This document shows, in pieces, positions 1,244 through 64,000 of a DNA stretch of 64,000 bases. The position numbers and the translations under genes are program-made. This DNA is from Nitrosopumilus sp. (lineage in GTDB: Archaea > Thermoproteota > Nitrososphaeria > Nitrososphaerales > Nitrosopumilaceae). Numbering within the stretch: position 1 is the first letter of the stretch; each line of letters begins with the position of its first letter. The notes under the pieces were generated by a model. It worked only from the letters and a program-made list of their open reading frames with translations. It did no database searches and was not told where the DNA came from. The DNA is taken from the NCBI GenBank assembly GCA_965249555.1, contig OZ252243.1:448001-512000 (forward strand). The letters are read 5' to 3'.

Positions 1244-2417
1244 AGATCAATTTATGGGGAATCTCTATCAGAGATTTCCAGTTACAATTGAAAAAGGAGT
1301 TGGAGCTCATGTATGGGATACAGATGGAAAAGAGTACATCGACTGCATGGGAGGATACGGTGTAGCATTAGTAGGTCATCAAAATCAAAGAGTCAACAAT
1401 GCAATTAAAGTACAACTTGATAAAATTATCACTGTTCACAGTTCCTTATACAACAAAACAAGAGAAGAGTTTTTGAAAATACTAATTGGACTAGCTCCCA
1501 AAGGACTCACACAAGTTCATCTAAACAATAGTGGAGCAGAAGCAATTGAAGCTGCAATAAAGTTTGCAAGAAAGTTTACAGGTAAAAAAGGAATGGTTGC
1601 AATGAAAGGTTCCTATCACGGAAAATCTTTTGGTGCATTGTCATTAACATTCAATCCAAAATATAGAAAACCATTTCAACCACTTGTTGAAAAAGTTTCT
1701 TTTGCATCTTTTGGAGATATTGAATCACTTCGTTCAATAATTGATGAAGATACAGCATTTGTAATTTTAGAACCAATTCAAGGAGAGAGTGGAATTATTG
1801 TTGCACCTGATGGATTTTTGCAAGAAGTAAGAAAACTTTGCGATGAGAAAGGAATTCTGTTAATTTTTGACGAAATACAAGCCGGTTTAGGTAGAACTGG
1901 ACGATTATGGGCTTGTGATCATTGGAACACTGCACCAGATATTTTATGTCTTGCAAAAGGAATAGCAGGAGGAATACCAATGGGTGTAACTCTTGTAAGA
2001 CCAGACATTCTCTCTTCAATGAGTAAAGGAGAACATTCATCAACATTTGGAGGAAACCCAATTTCTTGTGCAGCAGGGATTGCAGCTCTTAAAGCATTAA
2101 CCGAAGATGGATTGATTGAGAATTCAGAGAAGATGGGGAAAATTTTCAGAGAAGGATTAGAAAAATTAAAAGAAAAACATACGATGATTAGAGAGATTCG
2201 CGGTAAAGGACTCATGATAGGAATAGAGATGAAATTTGAAATCAAAGACATTCTAATGGGGTTAATAAAAGACGGTATTCTGATGCTATACTCTGGACGA
2301 AACATACTAAGAATTCTTCCACCATTAGTAATATCTGAAGAAGACATAACAAAAGTTTTACATGCTCTTGATTCCATACTAACAGAAGAGGAGCAAAAAC
2401 GTAATGTACAGAGATAA
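1236..2417 (+). CDS. lysJ: LysJ/ArgD class III PLP aminotransferase
   Basis: NSGAEAIE, YHGKS, EPIQGESG, FDEIQAGLGRTG and LAKGIAGG motifs. Operon position. Confidence 0.93.
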   Translation: MSEDQFMGNLYQRFPVTIEKGVGAHVWDTDGKEYIDCMGGYGVALVGHQNQRVNNAIKVQLDKIITVHSSLYNKTREEFLKILIGLAPKGLTQVHLNNSGAEAIEAAIKFARKFTGKKGMVAMKGSYHGKSFGALSLTFNPKYRKPFQPLVEKVSFASFGDIESLRSIIDEDTAFVILEPIQGESGIIVAPDGFLQEVRKLCDEKGILLIFDEIQAGLGRTGRLWACDHWNTAPDILCLAKGIAGGIPMGVTLVRPDILSSMSKGEHSSTFGGNPISCAAGIAALKALTEDGLIENSEKMGKIFREGLEKLKEKHTMIREIRGKGLMIGIEMKFEIKDILMGLIKDGILMLYSGRNILRILPPLVISEEDITKVLHALDSILTEEEQKRNVQR

Positions 2418-2823
2418 AGTAGACGAAAAGATCATAGAATATCTAAAAGAAAATTCTAGAGAATCATTTGTGGACATTGGAAAAAAATTAAAGCTTTCTG
2501 AATCAGCTGTAAGAAGACGTGTAAAAAATCTATTAGGAAGTGGAGTAATCAAAAAATTTACTTTAGAACTTGGTGAAGAAAATGCTACTAGTGCAATTGT
2601 TTTAGTTTCAGTAGATTCTGCAACAGATACATTCAAAGTTTCTATGAAACTTACAAAATTAGAAGGAGTGAAAACAGTTTATGAAATTACAGGCCAATAC
2701 GACATTACAGTAATTATCAGTGCAGCAACAATTGTTGAAATTAATAATAGTATTGATGCATTAAGAAAGATTCCAGGTGTAGTTGATACAAATACTGTAA
2801 TTATTTTGAAAAAAGTAATCTAA
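2404..2823 (+). CDS. lysM: Lrp/AsnC-family regulator (LysM-like)
   Basis: N-terminal HTH (LSESAVRRRV) and AsnC C-terminal domain (YEITGQYD), inside the lys operon. Confidence 0.85.
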   Translation: MYRDKVDEKIIEYLKENSRESFVDIGKKLKLSESAVRRRVKNLLGSGVIKKFTLELGEENATSAIVLVSVDSATDTFKVSMKLTKLEGVKTVYEITGQYDITVIISAATIVEINNSIDALRKIPGVVDTNTVIILKKVI

Positions 2824-2939
2824 AACGACTTTCGTTTCATAATTTCAATTCAAAACTAGATTAGGATCATTATTACTTATTTTCAACGAACCTAGTACGA
2901 ATATGTTTATATTCCCAATTTAGGTCAACGATTTCAGTA

Positions 2940-4118
2940 ATGAATGATCCGAATCACTATGCAAATATCTATAACGCATATGAAAAAAATCCAAAGAAGA
3001 TTAGAATTCTAGACAGTACACTAAGAGAAGGGGAACAACACCCAGGTGTTTCATTTACAAACAAACAAAGAATACAGGTTGCATGGATGTTAGATTATTT
3101 TGGAGTTGAACAAATTGAAATCTCACCGGTCATATCAAAAGATCATAAAGAGGCAACTAAGACAATCATCAAACAAGGATTAACTGCAGATATTGTTTCT
3201 CATGGACGTGCTCTTAAAGCAGATATTGATATTTCATTAGATTGTGATGCAAAATGGTGTGCTGCATATTTAGGAATTTCAGATATTCATCTAAAAGATA
3301 AATTACATATTTCAAGAGATGAGGCACTTGACAGAGCAGTAGAGACTGTAGAGTATGCAAAATCTCATGGTCTTAAAATTAGATTTACAGTAGAAGATGG
3401 AAGTAGGGCAGAACCAGAATTTTTACTCAAAGTATGTAAAGCAATTGAAGAAGCAGGAGTTGATAGAATTAGTCTTCCAGATACAGTGGGAATTTTACGC
3501 CCTATTGGAATGTATAATTTTGTTAAGAAGGTTAGAGAGGTAGTAAGTGTACCATTAGATGCACACGTTCACAATGATATTGGATTTGCAGTAGCAAATG
3601 CTTTTTCAGCATGTGATGCAGGAGTTGATCAGATTCATACTACTATTGACGGTATTGGAGAAAGAACTGGAATCCCACCACTTGCAGAAGTTGCAGTAGC
3701 GCTTACTTATCTTTACAAATCACCAAACGATTTCAGATTAGACATGTTACTGGATCTGTCTAGATTAATTGAAGATTATACATCAATCAAACCATATGAC
3801 TCAAAACCAATTGTAGGATCATCTGCATACAAACACAAAGCAGGAACACACCTTGCAGCAATTCTTAGAAACCCTGCAGCCTATGAATCCATACCCCCAA
3901 GAGCAGTTGGAAACAGAAGGAGAATTGTCTTTGGGGAATTAGCAGGTAAGACAGGAGCTGCATATCTAATGTCACTATTAGGACTTGAAAAAGACGATGA
4001 AGGTGCAAAAGCAGTTGCAGCTGGATTAAAGAATCTTAGAATGGGTGATCTTATTGAGATTCCACTTGAAGACAGACTTGAAAAGAAGATAATTAATGAC
4101 ACTGATAGTATGTATTAA
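2940..4118 (+). CDS. Homocitrate synthase / LeuA-family DRE-TIM enzyme; last 5 codons appear to be supplied by the inserted island
   Basis: DSTLREGEQ, PDTVG, HVHND, GIGERTG and HKAGTH motifs. Lys cluster context. Confidence 0.88.
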   Translation: MNDPNHYANIYNAYEKNPKKIRILDSTLREGEQHPGVSFTNKQRIQVAWMLDYFGVEQIEISPVISKDHKEATKTIIKQGLTADIVSHGRALKADIDISLDCDAKWCAAYLGISDIHLKDKLHISRDEALDRAVETVEYAKSHGLKIRFTVEDGSRAEPEFLLKVCKAIEEAGVDRISLPDTVGILRPIGMYNFVKKVREVVSVPLDAHVHNDIGFAVANAFSACDAGVDQIHTTIDGIGERTGIPPLAEVAVALTYLYKSPNDFRLDMLLDLSRLIEDYTSIKPYDSKPIVGSSAYKHKAGTHLAAILRNPAAYESIPPRAVGNRRRIVFGELAGKTGAAYLMSLLGLEKDDEGAKAVAAGLKNLRMGDLIEIPLEDRLEKKIINDTDSMY

Positions 4119-42629: not shown

Positions 42630-42925
42630 ATACGTGGTTTTCAATGATTTGATTTTACAGGATTATTATGATTTGTTCCCAGATTTACTTTCTTTGCAAA
42701 TAATCAGAAAGTATATCATCTGTCATCTCTACAACTTTGATATCTTTTCTCACAGCCAAACTACGTAACTTCCTGGCATTTCCCTTGTTCAACAAAATAA
42801 CAACTCTCTGTTGTAATAATCCACTCTTTGCTTTCTTGAGCAACTTGAGATGAGATGACTTTGGAGAACGACTCAAAACCTTGAGATACTCTCTTCGTAA
42901 TTTCTGATCCAATGGAATGATTTTC
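42630..42925 (-). repeat. Left arm of a 296-bp inverted repeat (3' fragment of the parB-like gene plus downstream DNA)
   Basis: Reverse complement of 59752-60047. ORF 42685-42930 matches the ParB C-terminus (KIIPLDQKLRREYL...). Confidence 0.92.
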
Positions 42926-43703
42926 CACATTTTATTTCACTATCAGGATCCAGGTAACTTGCCATCATCGGTACCGATGACTGGCTCACATCTTTTATCA
43001 GTATCTTCTTTTATTTTATCAAAATCCATGATAAAGTTGGAGATCTTGTATTTTCCATCAGATCTAGACTGACCGCCAGCAGACCACACTTTAATTTTTT
43101 TACATATTCCAAACGATGCTAGTTTTCCTATGCCCACGATGCCAACAGACAACGGTAATTCATTGTACTCCGGACACATCAAAGGTAATGAGGAGATCTA
43201 TGTCAAAGACGATTACCTAGTGATAATTCACGAGAAAAAGGGAAATGTGTTCACCAGGGAATTGTGTCTTCGGTGTACGTAAACTTTTTTCATTCCCTGC
43301 CATTGTTCATCTAATCTGATCCTTCATGCCATGAGTCAATGACATCCCATGACATGATTAGTCCACCTCTAGTTACAGGAGAATGGTGTGTTGTTTTCCA
43401 GTTTCCAACCATGAGTGATGAAAATAAGTGCTCCAATGGTTTGTTGATGCAACAATCTAGATCAGATGGTTAGTTATGCAACACAGCAGTAACTTTGATC
43501 AACTTTCTCTTTTTTGGTTTTTGCTGCTTTGTAGATGTTTAATCTAGGGAATATTTTTAATTGATTTGGGTTCGTATTAATTTTTAATAAATAAAAGATT
43601 AAAAGTCTTTTCAGGCTCTTAATCCAAATTACCATCGGGTAATCGTTTACCATCATAATCGTCATAGCGATTATAATTAAAAGTTACTATAATTTTAGGC
43701 ATG

Positions 43704-43969: not shown

Positions 43970-44064
43970 TATCCATGTGAATTGTTTTTAAACATTTCCC
44001 ACTTTTTTGCATCCAGAGGCATAGCCTTCGCTAGGGAATGCTTTCAATCAAAAGATGACGGACA
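43970..44064 (+). repeat. 95-bp direct repeat, copy A (copy B at 57019-57112)
   Basis: Five mismatches and one indel between copies by manual alignment. Confidence 0.9.
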
Positions 44065-44375: not shown

Positions 44376-44600
44376 CTATTCTTTACATTTATTGTAAATT
44401 TTTTCAAAATATGGTAATGCAATTCTCATTAATGATGCGTAACGCATAGAAGTTAAATCATCATATTTGTTTTTCTTCTCTAATGTTATTTTTCCTAAAC
44501 TAGCATGTTGAAAATAAAGATACCCTTGTGATGTAGTTGGAAGTATTTTGTATCCCAAAATTCTTAAAATTTTAGAATAGGTATTCCAATTATGGTTCAT
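44376..44600 (-). CDS. HicA-like protein lacking the catalytic His
   Basis: 74 aa, IL..LGY...QGYLYF.H....ITL. Overlaps the hicB-like gene. Confidence 0.45.
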   Translation of the reverse strand: MNHNWNTYSKILRILGYKILPTTSQGYLYFQHASLGKITLEKKNKYDDLTSMRYASLMRIALPYFEKIYNKCKE

Positions 44601-44805
44601 TGAATACTATTTTAAAATCTACACCATTCCCTGGTAATTGTGATTTCATTTCAGGAAATGCTTCAACATAACCATCCATAATTTCATGAATATTTTTACC
44701 GATTTCGGTTTTATTTTTTCCAGTAACTATGATTTCTGGATTATCAGGGCATTGAGCTAAATAACCTTCTTTTGTTCTAGTCAATTTTACTTGCAGATTA
44801 GTCAT
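44590..44805 (-). CDS. Short HicB-like antitoxin
   Basis: GYLAQCPD.PEIIVTGKN..E...NI.E pattern. Confidence 0.7.
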   Translation of the reverse strand: MTNLQVKLTRTKEGYLAQCPDNPEIIVTGKNKTEIGKNIHEIMDGYVEAFPEMKSQLPGNGVDFKIVFNEP

Positions 44806-46179: not shown

Positions 46180-49100
46180 CTAGTCATTCCAGCTAAGATC
46201 AGAGTCATCATATATCATACAGTCACACAGCATCTCCTGGGCCAGCATCTCTTGTATGGATAGTGATTCCAGCAGTGCAGGATCTGATACTCTGTCCAGC
46301 CTTAATGGCATATCATATGAGAATGATTCATCCAAGGTTCCCTGAATTGCCTTACTATCAAAGATTAGGGTTGCCCTATCCTGCTCATCAATTACCAGAT
46401 TTGCAAAGTTTGAATGAATTCTAGTCATTACGCTTGTTGGCAGATCATCTCTTTGTTGTATATCAGGTCTTGTAATCTGCAACCAGGTGCCATAGTCATT
46501 TTGTGACCATATGTATCCATATTGGTCCTCCCAGACCTGGTAACGTCTGTCCTGCTGGGTTAGTGATATGGTCTCAAACGGATTCTGGTTGCCATGCTTT
46601 TGTTTTAACTCATGAGTTGCTGCTGCAAGTAATGCTTCACCTGTAAACTCTACACCTTCGTTGATATATGTGGTAGTAGAATAACGTTGTTTGTCAACTG
46701 CATTAATTGCCAATACTTCATGGGATAATGGTGCCATTATTACAAATGATATGGTAACATCAAAGCACCTCTCTGCAGTATCTGATGATGTACATTTGAC
46801 TTTGTCAATTGTGGCACCAGTCATCTCCTCATTTACTAGTTCCTCTTTTTGCTCATGGACTATATCTGCAATGTCATAGCCTGCAGGACTGGTATAGTTG
46901 CTATTTACATTCACTATAATGTGGGACTCTGCATTAGTCTTCAGGCCAATTTCTGGAACTCCAAGGGATAAAGATACCGACTTTAGGCCATTTGTTGCAT
47001 AGCCTTTGATGTGGACTGTATTGTCATCACCAATAATGCTGCTAGTCAGATCAAAGTCAGTGTGCCAGTTGTTTGTAATGGTTAATGGCATGCCATTAAA
47101 GACAAAGCCGTCATCAACTAGCTGTACTGCTTGATTATTCCAATGTTTGCCAAAGGTTGGCTTTGTTTTCCATTCATTAGAATCTCCACCTTTTTTCTTT
47201 GGTGTTTCAGTTCCAGAAGGTGCACTAGCGATGCTACCAACTGCTGTTGTATCAAGTGTAATGACTACAGGTGATGATGCGTCAGATGTGTTGACTCCAT
47301 CAGATGCTGTTGCAGTGAATGAGTTCTCACCTTCATCTAGTGCAACTTCTGTAAATGAGAAATTCCCGTCACCATCGGCAGTTATTGTATCAACTGTTGA
47401 TCCTTCATTGAATAGTTCCACAGTTGTCCCGGCCTCAGCCGTACCTTCAATCGTGATTGATGGTGTATTGACAGTTGCAGGTGGTGTGGTAATTGCAGGA
47501 ACTGGTGGTGCTGTAACATCAGATCCTACTGTTACAGTTTCAGTGATTGTTGTGACTTGTCCATTGTTGTCAGTTACAGTGTAAGTTACAACATATTCTC
47601 CAGAAGTGTTGGCATTTACTGTTTCACCGCCAACTAAACTGGATGCAATTCCTGAGATATCAGATTCATTGGCAATTACACCTGGGGTGTATGTTCCGTC
47701 AAATGGTACTGTAGTTGTATAGTCAACTGTGTGACCATCAACATCAAAGGTTGGTGCTGTGGTATCAGATACGGTAATTGTAATTGATTTTTGGTCTGGT
47801 GTGTTGCCTGCCGCATCATCTGGTGCATCATACAATACGGTGTATACTCCTATAACACTGGAGTTAGGCGCATCATCTGTAACTGTTACTGTTCCAGAGT
47901 AATTTGGGTCATTATCTTCTACAGTAGCGTCAGGTATAGTGTAGGTGTTGGTTTGAGTTAACTCAATTATTTCACTAGATCCTGCTGGTGTGATAACTGG
48001 TTTTTCTGTATCAGGTAGAGTTGGTGGTGTGGTAGCTGTAACTGTAACTGTTCTAGTTACTGTAACTGCAGGGTTTCCAGCCGCATCAACTACATCAAAG
48101 GTAACATCATAGGTTCCAATCGTATCGGTATCAGCTGGATATCCAGCAACAACTACATCATCTGTGATAACTCCATCAGTGTTATCAGTTGCAGCAAAGG
48201 TGAATGGTGTGTATGTTTCTCCAAGTTCAACGGAGAATGATTCCTCATTGACTGTGATAGATGGTACTGTGGTATCAAATGCTTCAGGTACAGGTTCACA
48301 TATTTTATTATCTACACCAACACCCTTTACACAAACTTCATTAGCATCGTTTAGATCGATGATACGAGTTATAGTAGTAGTGATAGTATATTGATTTGAT
48401 TCTACAGTTGGAGTGAAAGTATCAAAATCATTACTACCGTCACCAATAGTAAGAACATATTCATTGGGGAGATTAGTTTCTATATTACTCCAGGATACTG
48501 TAACGGAATTATCAGCATTTCTTACAGCATCTATTGTTGGTTCAGGTCCTACTGTTACAGTTTCAGTGATTGTTGTGGTTTGTCCATTGCTGTCAGTTAC
48601 AGTATAAGTTACGATATATTCTCCAGAAGTGTTGACATTTACCAAGTCATCACCAACTACAATACTAGATACAATTACTGAGATATCAGATTGATTGTTA
48701 ATTGCACCTGGGGCGTATGTTCCGCCAAATGGTACTGTAGTTGTATAGTCAACTGTGTTACCATCAACATCAAAGGTTGGCGGTGTGGTATCAGATACGG
48801 TAATTGTAATTGATTGTTGGTCTGGCGTGTTACCTGCTGTATCAGCTGGCGCATCATACAATACGGTGTATACTCCTATAACACTGGAGTTAGGCGCATC
48901 ATCTGTAACTGTTACTGTTCCAGAGTAGGCTGGGTCATTATCTTCTACAATAGCGTCAGGTATAGTGTAGGTGTCAGTTGCAGTTAACTCTATTGTTTCA
49001 CTGGATCCTAATACCGTGATTACCGGTTTTTCGGTATCAAGCGTAATGACTATAGCTGGTGATGCAGCAGATGTGTTGACTTCATCAGATGCAGTTGCAG

Positions 49101-51891
49101 TGAATGAGTTGGTACCTGGATTTAGTGCAACTCTTGTAAATGAGAAATTCCCTGTATCAGCAATTACTGTATCAACTGATGTTGCTCCATTGAATAGTTC
49201 TATAGTTGTCCCGGCCTCAGCCGTACCTTCAATCGTGATTGATGGTGTATTGACAGTTGCAGATGAGGTGGTGATTATAGGAGCTTCCGGTGTTTCAGTA
49301 TCAAGTGTAATGACTATAGCTGGTGATGCAGCAGATGTGTTGACTCTATCAGATGCTCTTGCAGTGAATGAGTTGGTACCTTCATCTAGTGCAACTCCTG
49401 TAAATGAGAAATTCCCTGAACCATCGGCAATTACTGTACCAGCTGATGTTCCTCCATTGAATAGTGTTATAGTTGCTCCGGCTTCAGTTGAACCGCCATC
49501 AATTGTGATTGGTGATGCGCCAACAGTTGCAGATGGTGTGGTAATTGTAGGAACTGGTGGTGGTGTGGTATCAGTACTTTGAGCAGGTACGTCTGCATAC
49601 GTTATATCACCATATGTACTCTCAACAGCAACAGCACCAGCTACGCCAATTCTATCAGCATTATTTATTTTGTCAAAAAATGAATTACTAGTCAGGATAG
49701 TAAGAACAAATACTTCAGCCTCAGCAGTAGGGGAATGTGTAGTAAAGTGAGGTGTTTCTACTGTACCTCCTTTAGATACATAGAGAGCAAAATTGTTAAC
49801 AGATTCTATATTACTCCAGGATAGCGTGATGGAATTATCAGCATTTCTTTCAGCTGTTAAGGATGGAGTTGTATCAGTTGGTGCTGCAAGTGTAGTTACA
49901 GACACGACATTAGAGGCGGCACTGTCTCCAGCTGCTGCCACTGTCCTTATGGAATAAGTATAAGTTGTTTCAGGTTCCAAGGTATCATCAGTGTATGATA
50001 TCTCAGTCCCAGTGACTGGTATCTCAATTGATCCTGTGCCACCTGTTCTGCTCAGCGTATAACCAGTTGCACTAGTCTGCGCATCCCATGAGAGAACTAC
50101 ACTGTTATGAGTAGGGATTGCTGCAGTAAGTGCTGGGGTGCCAGGTACAGTCGATATGGATTCCCTTGCATATTCATGTCCACCAAATGAGATGACAACA
50201 TCACCAATAAAGCCATGACCAGTTAGTAGTGTAATAACTGGGGTGATACTACCTACCTCAGTAGTAATAATAGTCCAGTTCACGCTCGGACCACCTACTG
50301 CTTGAATCACAAATGTGCCTGCTCTTAACGGAACAAAGGATACCTCTACATCTCCATCAGCATTCGCAGTAGTATCAAAAGAGCCTGCCCTGATTGCCAG
50401 TGTCCTTGCAGATTTGCTTGCAACTGTCTCACCATCAAATGAGAGGGTGACTATATCATCAAAGACAAAGCCGACTGTTATTGTTTCCTCTTTTTCTCCT
50501 GAATCTGATACATCCTCAGCTGAGACAACAACAGTATCACTTGACTCACTAGATGTAATCGTAAATGTGCCTTCCTTTAAGGCTGTAAATTTCACAAGTA
50601 ATGTGTCTGCATTTACCGTATTGGTAATCACGAAAGAGTCTGCCTCTATTGCCGGAGTATCAGCTTGAGTTAAGGTTCTTGCATCAAACTCTAGAGAAGT
50701 ACTTGTCCCGGCAGTATTTGTTGCCGTAATGGTATACTTGTACGGTGTATCAGGAGACAGGGTCTCATCAGTGGCAGTCAATACATTGCTGGATACCACT
50801 ACTACATTACCGCCTGCAACAATTCTGGTTAAAGTGTAACTGTCGGCATTATCCACTGCACCCCATGAAAGTGCTATACTTGTGTCAGTGACTTCTCCCA
50901 GTACAAGTGCTGGAGTAGCAGGTGGTTCGGCATTTTGAGCAGGTACTGACCTCCACACAACCGGGCCATTATATTGGTCAACAAAATCAGAGTTAATTCT
51001 TATCGAACCAGTAGAACCAGTTACGCCGATTCTTGTAGCATCATTTACCAGGTCAAGATCCTCACCCGTAATGGTATAAGGGGAATTAAGCGTCTCATGG
51101 AGTTGATTACCATCACTTACGTCATTTATATAAATACCAAACCAACCACTGACAGTTTGCACATTATCCCAGGACAGTTTGATGGAATTGTCATCCAGTC
51201 GTTCAACTGTCAGAGTTGGTGGTGGTGCAGGTCCAGTCGTTACATGTGCCCTTGCAACTTCAACTAGATCAGCTCCGTCTCTAAAGAAAATGACGACATT
51301 GCCATCAAAACCATAACCTATCGTTAGTGTGGGTCCTCTATGTGTACCTATCTGACTATTACTAACAGCTACAAGAATAATGGTATCATCATGGTAAACA
51401 AGATAGTCACCGGCTTGTTTCGGTACAAAAGATACAGTTATTCGATCGTCTCTGGAAACATACTTTTGAATACTAAAACTGTCGTCCTCGATTGCCGTCT
51501 GGTCAGATGTGTAAGTTGGTGCTGTGGCACTAAAAGAGTCCGGTGCAGATGTGGTAGATAATTCCAAAGTATTAGAGTCTGCACTTGTCTGGGCTAAACT
51601 ATTGCGTGATATGGCATGATAAGTGTACTCTGTATCAGGAGCTAAATCATAATCAATGAGTGACGTATCAGCAGTATCTCCTGCGACAGTGCCGTTTCTG
51701 TACACTGTGTATGTTACGGCACCTTCTATCTCACTCCATGTAATCTCAATGTTTGTCGAAAAGATTTCTCCTGCTTCAATTACAGGAGGGACAGGTGCAA
51801 TTGGGGCTTGAGCCTCAGCACTTGCAAGAAGCGATATGGCAAACAGGACAACCCCCCCCCCCACTAACGCATTAAATAACATTTTATTCAT
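46180..51891 (-). CDS. 1903-aa secreted/surface protein with FN3 and bacterial Ig-like (Big/DUF5011-type) repeats and a C-terminal domain beginning KPTFG
   Basis: Signal peptide, repeated LSW...YTL.R...L.PDT.Y.Y FN3 units, DT..P.IT...Y.V.Y Ig units, Thr/Asp-rich. Confidence 0.85.
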   Translation of the reverse strand: MNKMLFNALVGGGVVLFAISLLASAEAQAPIAPVPPVIEAGEIFSTNIEITWSEIEGAVTYTVYRNGTVAGDTADTSLIDYDLAPDTEYTYHAISRNSLAQTSADSNTLELSTTSAPDSFSATAPTYTSDQTAIEDDSFSIQKYVSRDDRITVSFVPKQAGDYLVYHDDTIILVAVSNSQIGTHRGPTLTIGYGFDGNVVIFFRDGADLVEVARAHVTTGPAPPPTLTVERLDDNSIKLSWDNVQTVSGWFGIYINDVSDGNQLHETLNSPYTITGEDLDLVNDATRIGVTGSTGSIRINSDFVDQYNGPVVWRSVPAQNAEPPATPALVLGEVTDTSIALSWGAVDNADSYTLTRIVAGGNVVVVSSNVLTATDETLSPDTPYKYTITATNTAGTSTSLEFDARTLTQADTPAIEADSFVITNTVNADTLLVKFTALKEGTFTITSSESSDTVVVSAEDVSDSGEKEETITVGFVFDDIVTLSFDGETVASKSARTLAIRAGSFDTTANADGDVEVSFVPLRAGTFVIQAVGGPSVNWTIITTEVGSITPVITLLTGHGFIGDVVISFGGHEYARESISTVPGTPALTAAIPTHNSVVLSWDAQTSATGYTLSRTGGTGSIEIPVTGTEISYTDDTLEPETTYTYSIRTVAAAGDSAASNVVSVTTLAAPTDTTPSLTAERNADNSITLSWSNIESVNNFALYVSKGGTVETPHFTTHSPTAEAEVFVLTILTSNSFFDKINNADRIGVAGAVAVESTYGDITYADVPAQSTDTTPPPVPTITTPSATVGASPITIDGGSTEAGATITLFNGGTSAGTVIADGSGNFSFTGVALDEGTNSFTARASDRVNTSAASPAIVITLDTETPEAPIITTSSATVNTPSITIEGTAEAGTTIELFNGATSVDTVIADTGNFSFTRVALNPGTNSFTATASDEVNTSAASPAIVITLDTEKPVITVLGSSETIELTATDTYTIPDAIVEDNDPAYSGTVTVTDDAPNSSVIGVYTVLYDAPADTAGNTPDQQSITITVSDTTPPTFDVDGNTVDYTTTVPFGGTYAPGAINNQSDISVIVSSIVVGDDLVNVNTSGEYIVTYTVTDSNGQTTTITETVTVGPEPTIDAVRNADNSVTVSWSNIETNLPNEYVLTIGDGSNDFDTFTPTVESNQYTITTTITRIIDLNDANEVCVKGVGVDNKICEPVPEAFDTTVPSITVNEESFSVELGETYTPFTFAATDNTDGVITDDVVVAGYPADTDTIGTYDVTFDVVDAAGNPAVTVTRTVTVTATTPPTLPDTEKPVITPAGSSEIIELTQTNTYTIPDATVEDNDPNYSGTVTVTDDAPNSSVIGVYTVLYDAPDDAAGNTPDQKSITITVSDTTAPTFDVDGHTVDYTTTVPFDGTYTPGVIANESDISGIASSLVGGETVNANTSGEYVVTYTVTDNNGQVTTITETVTVGSDVTAPPVPAITTPPATVNTPSITIEGTAEAGTTVELFNEGSTVDTITADGDGNFSFTEVALDEGENSFTATASDGVNTSDASSPVVITLDTTAVGSIASAPSGTETPKKKGGDSNEWKTKPTFGKHWNNQAVQLVDDGFVFNGMPLTITNNWHTDFDLTSSIIGDDNTVHIKGYATNGLKSVSLSLGVPEIGLKTNAESHIIVNVNSNYTSPAGYDIADIVHEQKEELVNEEMTGATIDKVKCTSSDTAERCFDVTISFVIMAPLSHEVLAINAVDKQRYSTTTYINEGVEFTGEALLAAATHELKQKHGNQNPFETISLTQQDRRYQVWEDQYGYIWSQNDYGTWLQITRPDIQQRDDLPTSVMTRIHSNFANLVIDEQDRATLIFDSKAIQGTLDESFSYDMPLRLDRVSDPALLESLSIQEMLAQEMLCDCMIYDDSDLSWND
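51852..51862 (-). repeat. G11 homopolymer in the signal-peptide codons of the surface-protein gene
   Basis: C11 on the + strand, GTG GGG GGG GGG GTT on the coding strand. Confidence 0.95.
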
Positions 51892-54949: not shown

Positions 54950-55426
54950 TGAGATCCTTTGCTTTTTCCATTTGAATAATTTGAGAAATCAGTTAAAAAT
55001 GAGAATGGATTATGCCCATGTCTCAGGTATCTGATTATTTACACCTCCAATAATTGTAAAATTTGTATCTTCTATTCCATCAACAAATATTTTTTTTATT
55101 TTTATTACATCTAGACATGTGTTTACTATATCTACTCTTAGTGGGTTTGGTAATAACTTCAATTAATTTAATATTTTCTGTAGTGTATTTCTTATTCATC
55201 TCAATTTTATCATGTTGTGATAAGATATTTTCTTGAATAGTATTTTCTGCATAATGATAAAGTATGCCAGTTGCGGCACCTACAATTCCAATTTCAAAAA
55301 AGATTGCATTAGAATATGAAATTGAAAAATTAAAAGAAAGGAGAGAGAATAACTGAAAAAATTACTATAGATGAATTTGAATTAAAAAAGATTATGAAAA
55401 ACAATGAAAATAATTAACTGGCAATT

Positions 55427-55828
55427 TTACTCTTTAAGATCATCAGGATTTGTTGACCAAGGTTCTATTGCATATGTCTCAGATTTTCCATCAATTTCTA
55501 ATTTCCACAAATTAATTAAATTTCTACCTAAGAGAACATATTCTTTTGGCATTGCGACCACTTCAAAACTATCAAACTTTATACCGCCAATCTCAATACT
55601 GACAAAATAGTTGTAATGTATGGTTTCCACTCCAGTCACAGTCTTTACTATTGTTTCATCGGTCTTTTTTAGACTTAATGTGTTGACAAGATAATCTGGA
55701 ATTACTGTGTGACTTGAACCTGTGTCTATTTTTCCTTTTTCTGGAAAAGATTTTCCAGAATTATTCCACACTGTAAGATCCAGAACCAAAGAACTGGGAT
55801 TGTCTAGAGTGTTATGTCTAAATTTCAA
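55427..55828 (-). CDS. Retropepsin-like (clan AA) aspartic protease
   Basis: IDTGSSHT catalytic motif, TVTG flap and LLGRNLI. Confidence 0.85.
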   Translation of the reverse strand: MKFRHNTLDNPSSLVLDLTVWNNSGKSFPEKGKIDTGSSHTVIPDYLVNTLSLKKTDETIVKTVTGVETIHYNYFVSIEIGGIKFDSFEVVAMPKEYVLLGRNLINLWKLEIDGKSETYAIEPWSTNPDDLKE

Positions 55829-56274
55829 TGTGAAATAAACTCTGGAGTGTCTATTAGAACCATCTTTTGGCCTGTTATTTTATGCACATACATATCCACA
55901 TTACCGAATTTATCATACATTTTTTTAATTAATGCATTCTTTTTATATCCAGCATCTTGAAATTCACCATTAACGAATGCTACAAATTTATCTTTAAATT
56001 GAGAATTGTTAAAATTATTTTTTGCAAAATTCTCAAAGGCACTTTTATTTTGGATATTTTCAGTGTTTGTTATATTTTTATGCATTGGAATATTTTTCAA
56101 TACATCAACAAAAAATACATTTAGTTTATAACTACAAAAAATATTTTCATTAATGTCAAACCATGACTGTATGTCTTCTAGATGAAGTTCCGTTTTATCT
56201 AGATTCCATTCTTTAATTTCACTGTGATGATTAAATGACGAGTTTTCTAGTCCACCCGAAATATTCTCAGTCAA
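55825..56274 (-). CDS. Protein with a C-terminal DUF5678-like domain
   Basis: FKDKFVAFVNGEFQDAG....LIKKMY.KFG...YV..I. Its stop overlaps the protease ATG. Confidence 0.6.
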   Translation of the reverse strand: MTENISGGLENSSFNHHSEIKEWNLDKTELHLEDIQSWFDINENIFCSYKLNVFFVDVLKNIPMHKNITNTENIQNKSAFENFAKNNFNNSQFKDKFVAFVNGEFQDAGYKKNALIKKMYDKFGNVDMYVHKITGQKMVLIDTPEFISH

Positions 56275-56881
56275 TTATCTTATCACCAAATTTATCACGA
56301 AGATCACGTATTTCAGTTTTTAATGTATTAGCTCCATCATTTAATACCTCAACTAGTTCTTCAACCTCTTTTAGATTTAATTGAAAATTAATCACGTTAT
56401 CAACATCAAACTCATGTGTGTTTATGCTCACAACTAACGATGGAATAATTTTTGTAATTTTATTTTCATTAGAAATAGGTCTAAACTCTGTAACTGTATT
56501 AAAACCATGAGTGTGCGGATAACCAAATGTTTTAAGGAATTCGGTTTTAATACCAGTAGATAGACTGTCCATGTCTGTTTTATCATGAATTTTTTGAACC
56601 GTTTCTTTCAACACATTCTTTTTATCATCATCCAAATTTGAAGTATCAATAACTCCAAAAATTTTATTTGGACTGCGTTTACTTATGATAAAGTTATAAA
56701 ATATATGTATAATTTCATTATTATCATCATCATTAAAATCATCCCCTAAAATTTTCTTTATTTTAGATAGATCAGGTATTGTGTGTAGTATACTATCATC
56801 AAAAAAATTACCAAGTTCAATAATTTTTCCTTTTGGTATTCTTTTAAAAATAACTAATGTCTGAAAACTTTTTTCCAACAC
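56267..56881 (-). CDS. Putative COMM-domain-like protein
   Basis: Helical N-half, then P....F....EFRP / IPSLVVSI / INFQL and a long amphipathic helix, matching the COMM beta3-alpha layout by eye. Confidence 0.5.
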   Translation of the reverse strand: MLEKSFQTLVIFKRIPKGKIIELGNFFDDSILHTIPDLSKIKKILGDDFNDDDNNEIIHIFYNFIISKRSPNKIFGVIDTSNLDDDKKNVLKETVQKIHDKTDMDSLSTGIKTEFLKTFGYPHTHGFNTVTEFRPISNENKITKIIPSLVVSINTHEFDVDNVINFQLNLKEVEELVEVLNDGANTLKTEIRDLRDKFGDKIID

Positions 56882-57018
56882 CCTAAAAGTAGTATTATAC
56901 TTTTAATATCTTTCTTTGCCAAAAATCATTTGTTCTGACTGATTTTCCAGCATCCTAACTTAACACCTCAGCACCCGAATTTAACAGCAAGCTGAAATCA
57001 ATGAAAACACCCTAAGAT

Positions 57019-57112
57019 TATCCATGTGAATTGTTTTTATACATTTCCCACTTTTTTGCATCCCAAGGCATACCTTCGCTGGAGAATGCTTTCAATCAAA
57101 AGATGACGGACA
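57019..57112 (+). repeat. 95-bp direct repeat, copy B
   Basis: Matches 43970-44064. Confidence 0.9.
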
Positions 57113-57135: not shown

Positions 57136-57657
57136 TCAACATATAAAACGCGACTTGCACAGTCCTAACTGTAATTCTGTACAAATTCTCTCCTCTCTTT
57201 TAGCATCCAGTAAATCACTCGCAGAATCTGGATCAAATACACCTATTCTGGCACCTGTCGAGGCAAGAAAATAAAATAGTACTGCATCACGTTTGTTGCA
57301 TGTAGTATCTATTAATTTTTTAATATCTTGTTTTTGCCAAGCCTTGAGCTCTATTGGTCTAGTTTTAAGAGGATACATTTTTCGAATTATTTCCCAATCT
57401 AGCTTGATTCGATTCATGACAAAAAAATGATGTAAACCTAAAAACATTGTAGAAATTGAATTTGCATTAAAAGTATTCTTTAAATGTACTAGATAATCTT
57501 CTAATAAAATTTGTAGTTTGTGTGGAGATATTACAACTAGTTCATCATATGTTGAAATATTAGCATATTCTTGAAATTTTTTAATATGTTGAATGTAATT
57601 TTGTCGGATATATGGCGATCTTATAGATTCGTTGAATAAATACATACATCGTTGCAT
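57136..57657 (-). pseudogene. Tyrosine integrase, truncated after the first catalytic Arg
   Basis: N-terminal SAM-like domain and RDAVLFYFLASTGARIG. No HxxR or catalytic Tyr region. Confidence 0.8.
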
Positions 57658-57716
57658 ATGATTTTGTAAAATTAGACGTTGTATGTTTGTATTTTTTTTA
57701 ATGGTACTAGTTTCGA

Positions 57717-57909
57717 TCAGAGTAATTTCAGAAATTCTTTTTTTGTTAACCCGCAATCAGAAATTATTTGTAATAACAATCCCTTACCAATCTCTTTTTT
57801 TCTAGGTACGCTAGTCCATACAACCTCTTTTGTTATCAACTATAATGTGGCTTCCAGTTTGTCTTGTTGGATAAAAACCTCTTTTTCGTAGTGCTTTGAG
57901 TATATCCAT
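57717..57909 (-). pseudogene. HicA toxin with a single frameshift
   Basis: MDILKALRKRGFYPTRQTGSHII..., then shifted frame WTSVPRKKEIGKGLLLQIISDCGLTKKEF. Span is 193 nt. Confidence 0.8.
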
Positions 57910-59185: not shown

Positions 59186-59992
59186 ATGGCTAAAAGATAC
59201 AACTCCCCAATTACTTATCGATTAAAGGAAATTCCCATTAAATACATCAAAATATGGAAGGATGCACAAGCTAGAAAACTAGACAGGGAGGGAATCGCAG
59301 AACTTGCCCGTTCCATCAAAAATGAAGGATTGCAGAATCCACCTATGGTCCAAAAGGAATCAAAAAACTCGTATTTGTTACTGTCTGGACAGAGAAGGCT
59401 TGCTGCCCTGAAAAGGTTGGGTGCAAAGAAGATACCGGTGTTATTGCTTACACATAGTACGAAATATGATGTACATGATGCAAAGGCAGCATCAGTGGTT
59501 GAGAATCTGCATCGAAACAAAATGAACACAAAGGACATGACGGCAGCATGTGTATTTTTGACAGAATCAGTTGGAAAAAGTAAAGCTGCAAAATCACTAG
59601 GAATATCATCACAAACACTGAAGAAATACCTTGGATTTGCAGCGGTTCCAGATAGATTGAGGCAGTTTGTACCAAAGGAGCTGTCTCGTGATGATTGTGT
59701 GAAATTATATCAGGTCATCCCAAATCCATCAAAGGCTGTATCTGTTGCAGAGAAGATCATTCCACTGGACCAGAAACTACGAAGAGAGTATCTCAAGGTT
59801 TTGAGTCGTTCTCCAAAATCATCTCATCTCAAGTTGCTCAAGAAAGCAAAGAGCGGATTACTCCAACAGAGAGTTGTTATTTTGTTGAACAAGGGAAATG
59901 CCCGGAAACTGCGTAGTTTGGCTGTGAGAAAAGATGTAAAAGTTGTAGAGATGGCAGATGATATACTTTCTGATTATCTGAAAAGAAGGTAA
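59186..59992 (+). CDS. ParB/Spo0J-like protein
   Basis: LARSIKNEGLQNP, LSGQRRLAA and ENLHR motifs, plus an HTH (AAKSLGIS). Confidence 0.88.
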   Translation: MAKRYNSPITYRLKEIPIKYIKIWKDAQARKLDREGIAELARSIKNEGLQNPPMVQKESKNSYLLLSGQRRLAALKRLGAKKIPVLLLTHSTKYDVHDAKAASVVENLHRNKMNTKDMTAACVFLTESVGKSKAAKSLGISSQTLKKYLGFAAVPDRLRQFVPKELSRDDCVKLYQVIPNPSKAVSVAEKIIPLDQKLRREYLKVLSRSPKSSHLKLLKKAKSGLLQQRVVILLNKGNARKLRSLAVRKDVKVVEMADDILSDYLKRR

Positions 59993-61158: not shown

Positions 61159-64000
61159 TCAACTTTGATGGATAAAGGTCCTTGCAACTGACTCACCATC
61201 AAATAAGATGAATATCTTGCCATTATAACCAGGGCCGACTGGTACTGTAGTAGTTGATTTATCACGTAAATCACTATCTGTAATGCGGACAGTAATGCTC
61301 TGATCAGTACCATATTCAATCGTGAAATCACCGGATCTTAATGGCACAAATGATACAAATGCGTCATTAGAAGTAGAATAATAATCAATTCCAAAAGAGC
61401 CTGGTCTGATTGCAGATGGTGCTGTGTCAGTTGCTGCAGGTGTAGTTGCAGTGACCTCGTTAGATGAAGCACTTGGTCCAACGGAATTTGTAGCTATAAT
61501 GGTATACTTGTACTCTGTGTCTGCAGTCAGGTTCTCATCAGTGAAAGTCGTTGCATCGCCGGATAACGTTTCAGTATCATCAGCACTGCCTGCAAGGGTT
61601 CTGCTCAAAGTGTAACTGTCGACATTATCCGCTGTACCCCATGAGAGCGTTATACTTGTATCAGTAGTTGCTCCTGCGACAAGTACGGGTGCTGCAGGTA
61701 CAGTTGGCGTGGCAAGTGTAGTTGCAGTGACCTCGTTAGAGGCTGTGCTTGGCCCGACAGTGTTTGTCGCTATAATGGTATACTTGTAATCGGTTTCGGC
61801 AGTCAGGTTCTCATCAGTGTATGATATAGTAGTGCCCCCAGAGACCGGTATCTCAGCTGGCTCTGCGCCACCTGTTCTGCTCAGGGTGTAGCTGTCGGTA
61901 TTATCCACTGCAACCCATGAAAGTAATATAGTTGTATCAGTAGTTGCTCCTGCAGAAAGTACGGGTGCTGCAGGTACAGTTGGTTCAGGTCCTACTGTTA
62001 CAGTTTCAGTGATGATAGTAGGTAATCCATTGCTGTCAGTTACGGTATAAGTTACAACATATTCTCCAGAAGTGTTGACATTTACTGTGTCACCGCCAAC
62101 TATACCAGGTGCAGTTCCTGAGATATCAAATGCATTGTTAATTGCACCTGGGGTGTATGGTCCGCCAAATGGTACTGCAGTGGAATAGTCAACTGTGTTA
62201 CCATCAACATTAAAGGTTGGCGGTGTGGTATCAACTACGGTGATTACAATTGATTTTTGTTCTGGTTTGTTACCTGCCGCATCATTTGGCGCATCATACA
62301 ATACGGTGTATACGTCTACAACACTGGTGTCAGGTGTATCACCTGTAACTGCTACTGTTTCAGAGTAATTTGGGTCATTATCAGCTACAGTAGCGCCAGG
62401 TATAGTGTAGGTGTCAGTTGCAGTTAACTCTATTGTTGTATCAGATCCTGTTACTGTGATTACTGGTGCTGTTATATCAAATGCTTCAGGTACAGGTTCA
62501 CATATTTCATTATCTACACCAACACCCTTTATACAAACTCGATCAGCATCGTTTAGATCGATGTTAGTAGTAGTACGGATAGTGAATTCATTTGGGCCTC
62601 CAGTTGCAGAGAAACTATCAGAAGAACCACCATCATGAATAATAAAAGAATATTGATTAGGGGCATTAGTATCTATATTACTCCAGTATACTGTAACGGA
62701 ATTATCAGTATTTCTTACAGCATCTACTGTTGGTTTAGGTCCAGTTGGTTCAGGTCCAGTAGTTACAGATAACTTTGCAACCTCGCCATTGCCAAGGAAA
62801 ATCCTGACATTGCCTGTATAATCATACCCGACTGTTTCTGTGTGAATGAATGGGACGGCTGCATCATCAATTGTAAAGCCAATGGTACGACCACCCTCAA
62901 ATTCAATTGTAAAATCACCGGTGTGTGAGGATCTGAAGGTTATGACTACCTTGTCTCCGTCAGTAGCATGAGGGGCATCGCTGGAGGTGTACACGGCAGG
63001 TGACGGGCCTGGTTTGAGTGGATCAGTGCTAGCAATAAGTTCACCAGCTGTACTTGTCCCGGCAGTATTTGTTGCCATAATTATATACTTGTACTCTGTA
63101 TCAGCAGTCAGGTTATCATCAGTGGCAGTCAATACGTTGCCTGATAACACTTTAACATCATCACCGCCTGCAACGACTCTGGTCAGGGTGTAACTGTCGG
63201 CATTATCCACCGAATTCCATGAGAGCGTTATGGTATTATGGGTAACCGAGTCCTCACTGAGTGTAGGAGTGATAGGTGCAGTTGCAGATGTGGTAGTTAC
63301 ATCCAATGGTACAGATGGGATACCTTCTAGGAGACCACTTTTAATTGCTATGACGTGATATGAGTAGGATGTATCAGGAGTCACGTCCTCATCAAGGTAT
63401 TGGAAACCATTATCACGATGGACACCAGCATTGACGATGTCTATTTGAACAGTATCTCTAAACAACCTATAGAAGTTTACATCATCTACTTCATTCCATG
63501 AAATCGTGACACTGTCATGAGTGACTGCTATTTCCTCAAGTGTGACAATGGCTGCATCAGGTGCTGTAGGTGCAATTGGGGCAGCAGCAGTCCTTGCAGT
63601 GACCTCGTCAGCCGCGCCTGGCCCGGCAGAGTTTGTCGCTATAAGGGAATACTTGTACTCTGTGTCAGCAGCCAGGTTCTCATCAGTGAAAGTCAATGCA
63701 TTGCCTGATAACACTTCAGTACCATCAGTACTGCCTGCAAGGGTTCTGCTCAGGGTATAGGCGACTGTATTATCCACTTTACCCCATGAGAGTGCCACTG
63801 TCGTATCAGTGACTTTTCCCAGTACAAGTGCAGGAGCTGCAGGTACAGCTGTGGCAACAGCAGTAGTTGCAGTGACCTCAGAAGGTTCACTTGGCCCGAC
63901 AGAGTTTGTCGCTATAAGGGAATACTTGTACTCTGTGTCAGCAGTCAGTCCGGTATCAGTGGCAGTCAGTCCGGTATCAGTGGCAGTCAGTCCAGTTGTT
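61159..64000 (-). CDS. Second FN3/Ig-repeat surface protein, paralog of 46180-51891; 5' end beyond the window, C-terminus disrupted
   Basis: Frame stays open to 63999 and shares modules with the first paralog. A detached KTKPTFGVNWNNQ..LVDNGFVFN relic follows the stop at ~61060-61145. Confidence 0.8.
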   Translation of the reverse strand, partial: TTGLTATDTGLTATDTGLTADTEYKYSLIATNSVGPSEPSEVTATTAVATAVPAAPALVLGKVTDTTVALSWGKVDNTVAYTLSRTLAGSTDGTEVLSGNALTFTDENLAADTEYKYSLIATNSAGPGAADEVTARTAAAPIAPTAPDAAIVTLEEIAVTHDSVTISWNEVDDVNFYRLFRDTVQIDIVNAGVHRDNGFQYLDEDVTPDTSYSYHVIAIKSGLLEGIPSVPLDVTTTSATAPITPTLSEDSVTHNTITLSWNSVDNADSYTLTRVVAGGDDVKVLSGNVLTATDDNLTADTEYKYIIMATNTAGTSTAGELIASTDPLKPGPSPAVYTSSDAPHATDGDKVVITFRSSHTGDFTIEFEGGRTIGFTIDDAAVPFIHTETVGYDYTGNVRIFLGNGEVAKLSVTTGPEPTGPKPTVDAVRNTDNSVTVYWSNIDTNAPNQYSFIIHDGGSSDSFSATGGPNEFTIRTTTNIDLNDADRVCIKGVGVDNEICEPVPEAFDITAPVITVTGSDTTIELTATDTYTIPGATVADNDPNYSETVAVTGDTPDTSVVDVYTVLYDAPNDAAGNKPEQKSIVITVVDTTPPTFNVDGNTVDYSTAVPFGGPYTPGAINNAFDISGTAPGIVGGDTVNVNTSGEYVVTYTVTDSNGLPTIITETVTVGPEPTVPAAPVLSAGATTDTTILLSWVAVDNTDSYTLSRTGGAEPAEIPVSGGTTISYTDENLTAETDYKYTIIATNTVGPSTASNEVTATTLATPTVPAAPVLVAGATTDTSITLSWGTADNVDSYTLSRTLAGSADDTETLSGDATTFTDENLTADTEYKYTIIATNSVGPSASSNEVTATTPAATDTAPSAIRPGSFGIDYYSTSNDAFVSFVPLRSGDFTIEYGTDQSITVRITDSDLRDKSTTTVPVGPGYNGKIFILFDGESVARTFIHQS

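Follow-up and report, generated by a model that had tools for sequence, protein, structure and literature searches.

We have analyzed a stretch of 64,000 nucleotides (nt) from Nitrosopumilus sp. (assembly GCA_965249555.1, contig OZ252243.1, positions 448,001 to 512,000 of the forward strand), which we call the window. It contains three overlapping genes, referred to here as the trio. Their predicted products are a relative of COMMD proteins (gene 1), a small adaptor-like protein (gene 2) and a retropepsin-like aspartic protease (gene 3). The same unit is found in other Nitrosopumilaceae. The initial annotation described three intact, overlapping open reading frames (ORFs), and this description holds when the coordinates are read again from the ORF list: all three lie on the minus strand (Table 1). 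Genes 1 and 2 share 8 nt (56267-56274), genes 2 and 3 share 4 nt (55825-55828). The shorter overlap had been given as ATGA; in the window it reads TTGA on the coding strand, and gene 3 starts with TTG. An ATG start is found at this junction in a related locus, L022. The trio block has a GC content of 28-30%, versus 31-45% around it. Stop codons are frequent at such a low GC content, and frames of this length would not be expected to stay open by chance. Homologues were found for every ORF as well (15 for gene 1 and 23 for gene 2, the window's own protein counted in), and the three ORFs are thus more than a chance occurrence. The gene 1 profile matched 65 cluster representatives. The long form of gene 1, with a GTG start, is supported by its residues 9-20, which are conserved among relatives.

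Gene 1 matches no Pfam or NCBIfam family. An AlphaFold2 (AF2) model was built from 11 relatives, with a mean confidence (pLDDT) of 69.4. It has an N-terminal HN-type helical domain of about 118 residues (helices 2-118), followed by a COMM-type half with strands at 123-138, 141-157 and 160-168, and helices at 170-198. The helical half, with pLDDT block means of 71-93 over residues 11-100 and 55-67 at its ends, has the topology of the COMMD HN domain, and the second half has the three-stranded antiparallel sheet and the extended helix of a COMM domain. When the model was compared with the Protein Data Bank (PDB) using Foldseek, COMMD or COMMD-like chains occupied the top 10 ranks (E 2.6e-7 to 6.6e-5). 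The best match is 9q6c_A, a bacterial octameric COMMD-like protein (MBK5214510, E 2.6e-7); 9q6a is also matched, as are chains of human COMMD rings (8p0w_H, E 1.1e-6; 8f2r_H, E 1.7e-6). COMMD or COMMD-like chains are also the top five rows of VIA-align: the human COMMD chain 8f2r_D has a Z of 11.0 over 169 residues, followed by 8esd_T (8.8), 8p0w_J (8.5) and 9q6a_A (7.1), while the best unrelated row has a Z of 4.9. The alignments to these four chains run from model residues 1-2 to 182-183. An isolated COMM domain, 6bp6_A, gives a VIA Z of 6.2 over 65 residues and a Foldseek TM score of 0.63. Judged by its predicted structure, the product of gene 1 is a relative of COMMD proteins, matched over its full length. 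The COMMD layout of this 204 amino acid (aa) protein had been proposed by eye, and both the model and the structural ranks agree with the proposal. A comparison of the gene 1 profile with PDB sequences only gives marginal values for COMMD3 (E 0.12) and COMMD2 (E 0.32).

Gene 1 is found as a single copy in its own genome. Its family has a signature, F-G-H-P-H-x-H ... T-E-F-R-P ... Q (window residues 119-135 and 167), in which G120, H123, R134 and Q167 are nearly invariant in an alignment of 42 sequences. The loop with which the COMM domain begins is rich in histidine, and could bind a metal or a ligand.

Gene 3 matches the Pfam family Asp_protease_2 (PF13650) with an E of 6e-10 and 40.1 bits, versus a cut-off of 24.3, and gag-asp_proteas with an E of 2.7e-8. 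It contains the motifs K-I-D35-T-G-S and L-L-G101-R102-N, whose residues D35, G37, G101 and R102 are invariant in the 11 aligned proteases. Both the score and the D-[TS]-G and G-R motifs place it with the retropepsin-like proteins (Asp_protease_2, clan AA). The initial annotation had recognized a retropepsin with DTG and LLGR motifs, and the Pfam score and the alignment agree: by sequence, gene 3 codes for a single-domain retropepsin-like aspartic protease. Its score with the NCBIfam model TIGR03698 (clan_AA_DTGF) is 28.1 bits (E 2e-6), below the cut-off of 57.35, which points to a protein related to this family and not a member of it by that model. A C-terminal tail, P-W-S-T-N-P, is present in six of seven trio proteases and as a variant, S-F-S-Q-N-P, in the seventh (L044); none of four stand-alone partner proteases has the P-W-S-T-N-P tail. 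Retropepsins are known to be active only as homodimers.

The product of gene 2 appears to have two parts in the AF2 model. Residues 1-69 are predicted to be disordered (pLDDT <50), and residues 70-136 form a helix-hairpin-helix-strand domain (pLDDT about 85). This fold has no solved counterpart in the searches made: Foldseek against the PDB gave nothing at an E of 0.001 or better, and the best Z in a VIA comparison with 48,161 chains was 4.0. When a profile of 17 gene 2 relatives was compared with eight true DUF5678 proteins using hhalign, a probability of 68% (E 4.9e-5) was obtained over 32 columns, corresponding to residues 82-113. The three nearest gene 2 clusters in the Atlas carry DUF5678, with scores of 0.80-0.83, which is a lead only. 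A scan of the whole genome with the Pfam model of DUF5678 (PF18929) did not match the trio locus; elsewhere it gave two loci with scores over the cut-off, and a weak match (E 0.36) at a third place. The earlier description of gene 2 as DUF5678-like may be kept in part: its position directly upstream of a retropepsin-like gene, with the 4 nt overlap, fits such a protein, the hhalign probability is at most suggestive, and the Pfam model is not reached. We call it DUF5678-like by profile comparison and position only. The C-terminal residues I-D-T-P-E-F (141-146) are invariant or nearly so in 17 sequences, and form a possible docking peptide or pseudo-substrate. Stand-alone DUF5678 proteins lack this tail and have hydrophobic ends (L-I-L or L-L-L).

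The trio is found in several genomes. When the gene 1 protein was used as a single query against 60 relatives, only the window's own genome was matched, so a profile search was needed to find its relatives. Among 401 Nitrososphaeria genomes, this search found the gene 1 family in 11 (own included), which belong to one family and to 4 of the 81 genera. In a draw across the whole phylum it was present in 3 of 401 genomes, own included. A scan of a genome collection gave six loci in Nitrosopumilus or other Nitrosopumilaceae, all six with genes 2 and 3 downstream. Metagenome contigs were searched with a back-translated DNA pattern, and only one of the 26 stretches obtained was a true relative (L044). 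After merging duplicates, the trio is present in 10 distinct loci: the window, L002-L007, L022, L029 and L044. The initial annotation considered that its reading would fail if the first protein had no COMM fold and its homologues did not occur together with the DUF5678/protease pair; we have found matches to COMMD structures and 10 trio loci in Nitrosopumilaceae.

The trio is kept when gene 1 identity falls to 41% (L044 type) and to 32% in L022, a GC-rich locus which also has overlaps of 8 and 4 nt. The 8 nt overlap is found in six of the seven loci in which genes 1 and 2 are whole or nearly so, and the 4 nt overlap between genes 2 and 3 in five of these seven. It might be argued that the three genes are mere neighbours, with no function in common. 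The only point in favor of this is that an interaction among their products is argued for rather than observed, and the synteny contradicts it, since order, strand and overlaps recur in 10 loci from four genera. We consider chance adjacency extremely improbable.

A comparison of the window with six genomes using tblastx shows that the trio block aligns, while the flanks only give a few short, non-collinear matches of low identity. The trio behaves as a self-contained, cassette-like mobile unit with a patchy distribution. It is intact in six loci (the window, L002, L003, L004, L022 and L044). Various kinds of damage are found in the others. In L005 and L007, genes 1 and 2 are joined by a common deletion; gene 3 is interrupted by a stop at its fourth codon in L005 and is truncated in L007. 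In L006 (4600-6345), gene 1 is present in two pieces about 1.1 kb apart, probably split by an insertion, and genes 2 and 3 are still open. L029 has stops throughout and lacks gene 2.

Relatives of gene 1 are also found in other contexts. In four further loci (L023, L024, L025 and L026), a gene 1 relative heads another tightly packed downstream pair. Gene 1 identity is 27-33% (tblastn) in L023, L025 and L026. In these three loci the first gene of the pair codes for a protein of 220-243 aa which belongs to no known family, and the second for a protein of 125-155 aa with an A-V-S-R-x-Y-Y-S motif. Two weak leads connect this last protein with HEPN-type proteins: PADLOC matches it to PDC-M05B (E 1.5e-4), and in the Atlas a HEPN cluster is matched with a score of 0.93. 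Pfam finds no family, HEPN included, in the third genes of these alternative loci, and a sequence profile gives 0 matches in the PDB. L024 has yet another downstream pair. The gene 2 profile was compared with the middle proteins of the alternative loci, and the hhalign probability is 0.1%: no shared adaptor domain is seen. Across the 14 loci observed, gene 1 comes first in a unit of three genes, and the two genes after it are replaced together.

Two other proteins, in L032 (1339-1875, minus strand, 178 aa) and L034 (1297-1767, minus strand, 156 aa), match the HN half of the gene 1 profile only (E 2.4e-10 and 2e-6, respectively), and have a different, short C-terminus. The ORF next to the L032 gene has PIN matches below threshold (E 0.075-0.19), a weak hint of another toxin-type partner.

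The pair formed by a DUF5678 gene and a protease gene also exists without gene 1. In the genome containing the window, two genes are true DUF5678 members (46.1 and 45.7 bits), both directly upstream of a retropepsin-like ORF with a D-S-G motif. Among 41 Nitrosopumilus genomes drawn, DUF5678 is found in eight, which have 10 loci; in 8 of these 10 the DUF5678 gene is directly followed by an ORF containing a D[ST]G[AS] motif. The statement in the initial annotation that DUF5678 genes adjoin clan AA proteases is thus valid in this genus. Gene 2 relatives have 141-154 aa (17-row alignment), or 191 aa in L022, versus 68-75 aa for stand-alone DUF5678 proteins. We have found no study of the DUF5678-retropepsin pair in a full-text search of the literature, and PADLOC assigns eight true DUF5678 proteins to 0 families. 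A stand-alone pair in the window genome (L009, 596-1351, minus strand) and the L044 trio (2116-3255, plus strand) each adjoin transposase-like ORFs, which by eye have long identical stretches in common.

As the pairs stand alone and gene 1 relatives take other pairs, neither half needs the other in general. Genes 2 and 3 might accordingly form an autonomous pair, in which the protease is held in check by its small partner, with gene 1 as a loose accessory, such as a regulator or an adaptor chaperone. The pair stands alone twice in the window genome and in eight of the ten loci of the genus, and gene 1 relatives join other cassettes. Furthermore, a study of COMMD-like proteins from prokaryotes (Liu, Collins, Healy et al., Nat Commun 2026, PMC13392464) reports that, in three other lineages, AlphaFold did not predict contacts of these proteins with their neighbours. 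On the other hand, genes 1 and 2 still overlap by 8 nt at an identity of only 32%, all three genes move together, and genes 2 and 3 bear additions that occur only in the trio context, which suggests their adaptation to gene 1. We consider an autonomous pair a doubtful explanation.

The reading we prefer, with a probability of roughly 40%, is that a DUF5678-protease pair has been captured by a COMMD-like ring which controls it, and that the three genes act as a selfish or conflict module. The product of gene 1 would probably assemble into a homo-oligomeric ring, like its solved bacterial relatives. The C-terminal DUF5678-like domain of gene 2 would pair with the protease as its cognate partner, in the manner of the widespread two-gene cassette, and the long disordered N-terminal extension would be an add-on to this domain. 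The gene 3 protease would have to dimerize in order to form its active site. By tethering several adaptor-protease units, the ring could control them; the gene 2 N-extension and the gene 3 C-terminal tail would be the docking elements, and the state of the ring would switch protease dimerization or release. The module would be a selfish or conflict element, of the same type as toxin-antitoxin or abortive-infection systems, and not a housekeeping system: its scattered occurrence, its behaviour as a cassette, the frequency of decayed copies and the exchange of effector pairs all argue for the former. The analysis shows the gene content and the folds, the syntenic and translationally coupled arrangement, the cassette-like mobility and the patchy distribution; ring formation, contacts, switch and any toxic or defensive effect are what we infer.

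Several results weigh against this reading. Nothing computed here shows contact among the three proteins; a complex prediction with two gene 1 copies and gene 2 gave no answer (score 0.20, mark 0.32), and counts neither for nor against this reading. The COMM half of the gene 1 model has a low confidence (pLDDT 53-67 per block of 10 residues), and at the sequence level gene 1 has no COMM match (Pfam COMM_domain). Gene 2 matches no Pfam family at E values up to 10, DUF5678 (cut-off 23.2 bits) included. DUF5678-protease pairs are present without a COMMD-like gene elsewhere in the window genome, and gene 1 relatives are found with pairs other than DUF5678-like protein and protease. Four of the ten trio loci (L005, L006, L007 and L029) are decayed. 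The only full-length fusion of genes 1 and 2, P0067, is one sequence on one contig, which may be an assembly error; a search of proteins of 637-2000 aa with the 42-sequence gene 1 alignment found no longer fused forms, which is weak evidence. No defence gene is confirmed beside the trio, and PADLOC has no defence model that matches gene 1 or gene 2. None of the 204 candidate stretches obtained from IMG/VR viral contigs with profile-derived peptide patterns is a true relative.

The protease could also have a role within the trio itself. It might cut the N-extension of gene 2, or gene 1, as a maturation step or as a one-shot switch of the ring, in a cellular function unrelated to conflict. Retroviral proteases mature by cutting flanking disordered segments, and gene 2 has both a 69-residue N-terminus predicted to be disordered and the invariant I-D-T-P-E-F tail. 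Nevertheless, a conserved cellular role does not fit well with the patchy distribution, the decay of 4 of 10 loci and the surroundings of insertion sequence (IS) and integrase debris, and no cleavage site has been identified. Such self-processing appears quite unlikely.

The surroundings of the trio in the window are also shown in Table 1. An IS110 transposase near the trio is split over two ORFs, fragments of IS66 and DDE transposases are present, and a 206-aa ORF, which matches Phage_int_SAM_1 weakly (E 0.028), could be a fragment of an integrase. Broken IS and integrase neighbours had indeed been described initially. For the broken hicA and hsdS genes of that description, the only related signal is a weak UPF0150-like match (E 0.11). 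The same description placed the trio in an archaeal defence-type island; what we see around it is debris of IS elements and integrase, flanked by two tRNA genes, and no defence gene is confirmed there. An AT-rich, TATA-like element, GATATTAAAAGTATAAT, is seen by eye 13-29 nt upstream of the gene 1 GTG, and could serve as an archaeal promoter, whose mRNA would be leaderless or have a short leader. Likewise, three oligo-T runs are present in the 45 nt that follow the stop codon of gene 3, and could act as an archaeal terminator of the oligo-T type. Both elements, identified by eye, fit a single transcription unit.

Table 1. Coordinates of the trio and of other features in the window.
Feature	Position	Strand	Description
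Gene 1 (COMMD-like)	56267..56881	-	ORF, 204 aa, GTG start
Gene 2 (adaptor-like)	55825..56274	-	ORF, 149 aa, TTG start
Gene 3 (retropepsin-like protease)	55427..55828	-	ORF, 133 aa, TTG start
TATA-like element, possible promoter	56894..56910	-	AT-rich, by eye
Oligo-T runs, possible terminator	55384..55412	-	three runs, by eye
IS66 and DDE fragments	53.2-54.6 kb
Putative integrase fragment	57136..57756		ORF, 206 aa
UPF0150-like signal	44593-44805		weak
Direct repeat, first copy	43970-44023		54 nt, just after tRNA-Gly
Direct repeat, second copy	57019-57072		54 nt, between integrase fragment and gene 1
Partial copy of ParB_N protein	42685-42930	-	ORF, 81 aa
ParB_N protein	59186-59992	+	268 aa
Surface-type protein	46180-51891	-	1903 aa, fn3 and Ig-like repeats
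Surface-type protein	61159-63999	-	>946 aa (runs off the window), fn3 and Ig-like repeats

The integrase fragment and tRNA-Phe lie within 2 kb of the trio, whose GC content is lower than that of its surroundings. Both facts would agree with a remnant of a virus or provirus, with a protease for virion maturation. However, no relative is found on IMG/VR contigs, neither with peptide patterns (0 of 204) nor with a DNA pattern, whose two matches are not true relatives, and other genomes contain the trio without shared flanking genes. A viral origin of this kind is very improbable.

Some other features of this region should be mentioned. A 54 nt direct repeat, whose two copies are 94% identical and 13 kb apart, brackets a variable segment with IS fragments, the 1903-aa surface protein and the trio. 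It may be debris from an attachment site or from a duplicated gene end. The 81-aa ORF is near-identical to the C-terminal part of the ParB_N protein, in inverted orientation, which suggests a rearrangement or duplication linking two tRNA-proximal regions. The two large surface-type proteins have DNA repeat units which are 80-90% identical between them.

Whichever its function, the trio provides a COMMD-like protein with a compact, conserved and translationally coupled set of partners, and proteolysis is easy to assay: the role of prokaryotic COMMD rings becomes a question which can be tested at the bench. It is also a natural three-component variant of the DUF5678-retropepsin pair, in which the N-extension of gene 2 and the C-terminal tail of gene 3 point to where contacts should be sought. 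A wider idea, which we consider rather unlikely, is that a COMMD-like ring serves as the fixed base in a family of modular conflict systems of three genes, in which the adaptor-effector pair can be exchanged. The pair would be a DUF5678-like adaptor and a retropepsin here, and an unknown adaptor and a HEPN-like protein in the sister loci. The ancestral role of COMM would then be to hold effectors inactive on a ring and release them on a signal, before it acted as a scaffold in Commander, and this role could inform the scaffold role in the eukaryotic Commander complex.

Comparison with known systems shows both similarities and differences. In the stand-alone DUF5678-retropepsin pair, as in the trio, a small partner lies directly upstream of a D-[TS]-G protease and overlaps it. 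However, gene 2 of the trio is about twice as long, with another C-terminal tail and no match to the Pfam model; gene 3 is extended by a tail at its C-terminus and does not reach the TIGR03698 cut-off; and a third gene lies ahead of the pair. Other retropepsins, such as HIV-1 PR, the RVP domain of Ddi1 and Rickettsia APRc, have a single lobe of about 100-130 aa with D-T-G and G-R-[DN] motifs. Gene 3 has the same single-lobe size and the D-T-G and G-R motifs, and differs in having neither a polyprotein context nor a membrane anchor.

Among defence systems, the candidate system PDC-M08 of PADLOC may be compared with the trio, as three PDC-M08B models are matched by gene 3, the best of them with an E of 2.3e-6. 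Only this component is matched, and weakly, while genes 1 and 2 are unmatched, so the trio does not belong to PDC-M08: the match probably reflects a shared protease fold. PADLOC only gives single stray matches for 17 gene 2 relatives. Type II toxin-antitoxin and HEPN modules are likewise small, mobile, overlapping operons with a patchy distribution, which are often decayed, and the third gene of the sister loci is HEPN-like by weak leads. The trio differs from them in having three genes and no recognized DNA-binding antitoxin, and the toxin-antitoxin survey of Makarova et al. 2009 (PMC2701414) does not mention aspartic proteases.

Finally, prokaryotic COMMD-like proteins have been described by Liu et al. 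(PDB 9q6a and 9q6c). The solved proteins pair as homodimers via their COMM domains and build rings of 8 or 10 subunits, and the neighbours of COMMD-like genes in Myxococcota are related to type VI secretion. Their function is stated as unknown, also in the searched text of a 2026 preprint (10.64898/2026.02.02.703414). The publication of these rings makes the novelty smaller than the initial annotation assumed. The main text of Liu et al. does not mention proteases, Nitroso- or Thaumarchae-, while its Dataset S1 may list members. The components of the trio are of known kinds, and their union in one operon is not found in the text searched. Compared with the proteins as described in that text, gene 1 is alike in its length of about 200 aa, its predicted HN and COMM domains (three strands and a long helix), its single copy per genome, an identity below 20% to eukaryotic COMMDs, and an absent or marginal COMM match at the sequence level. 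It differs in being a separate sequence family, found here only in Nitrosopumilaceae, and in heading a translationally coupled operon with a protease.

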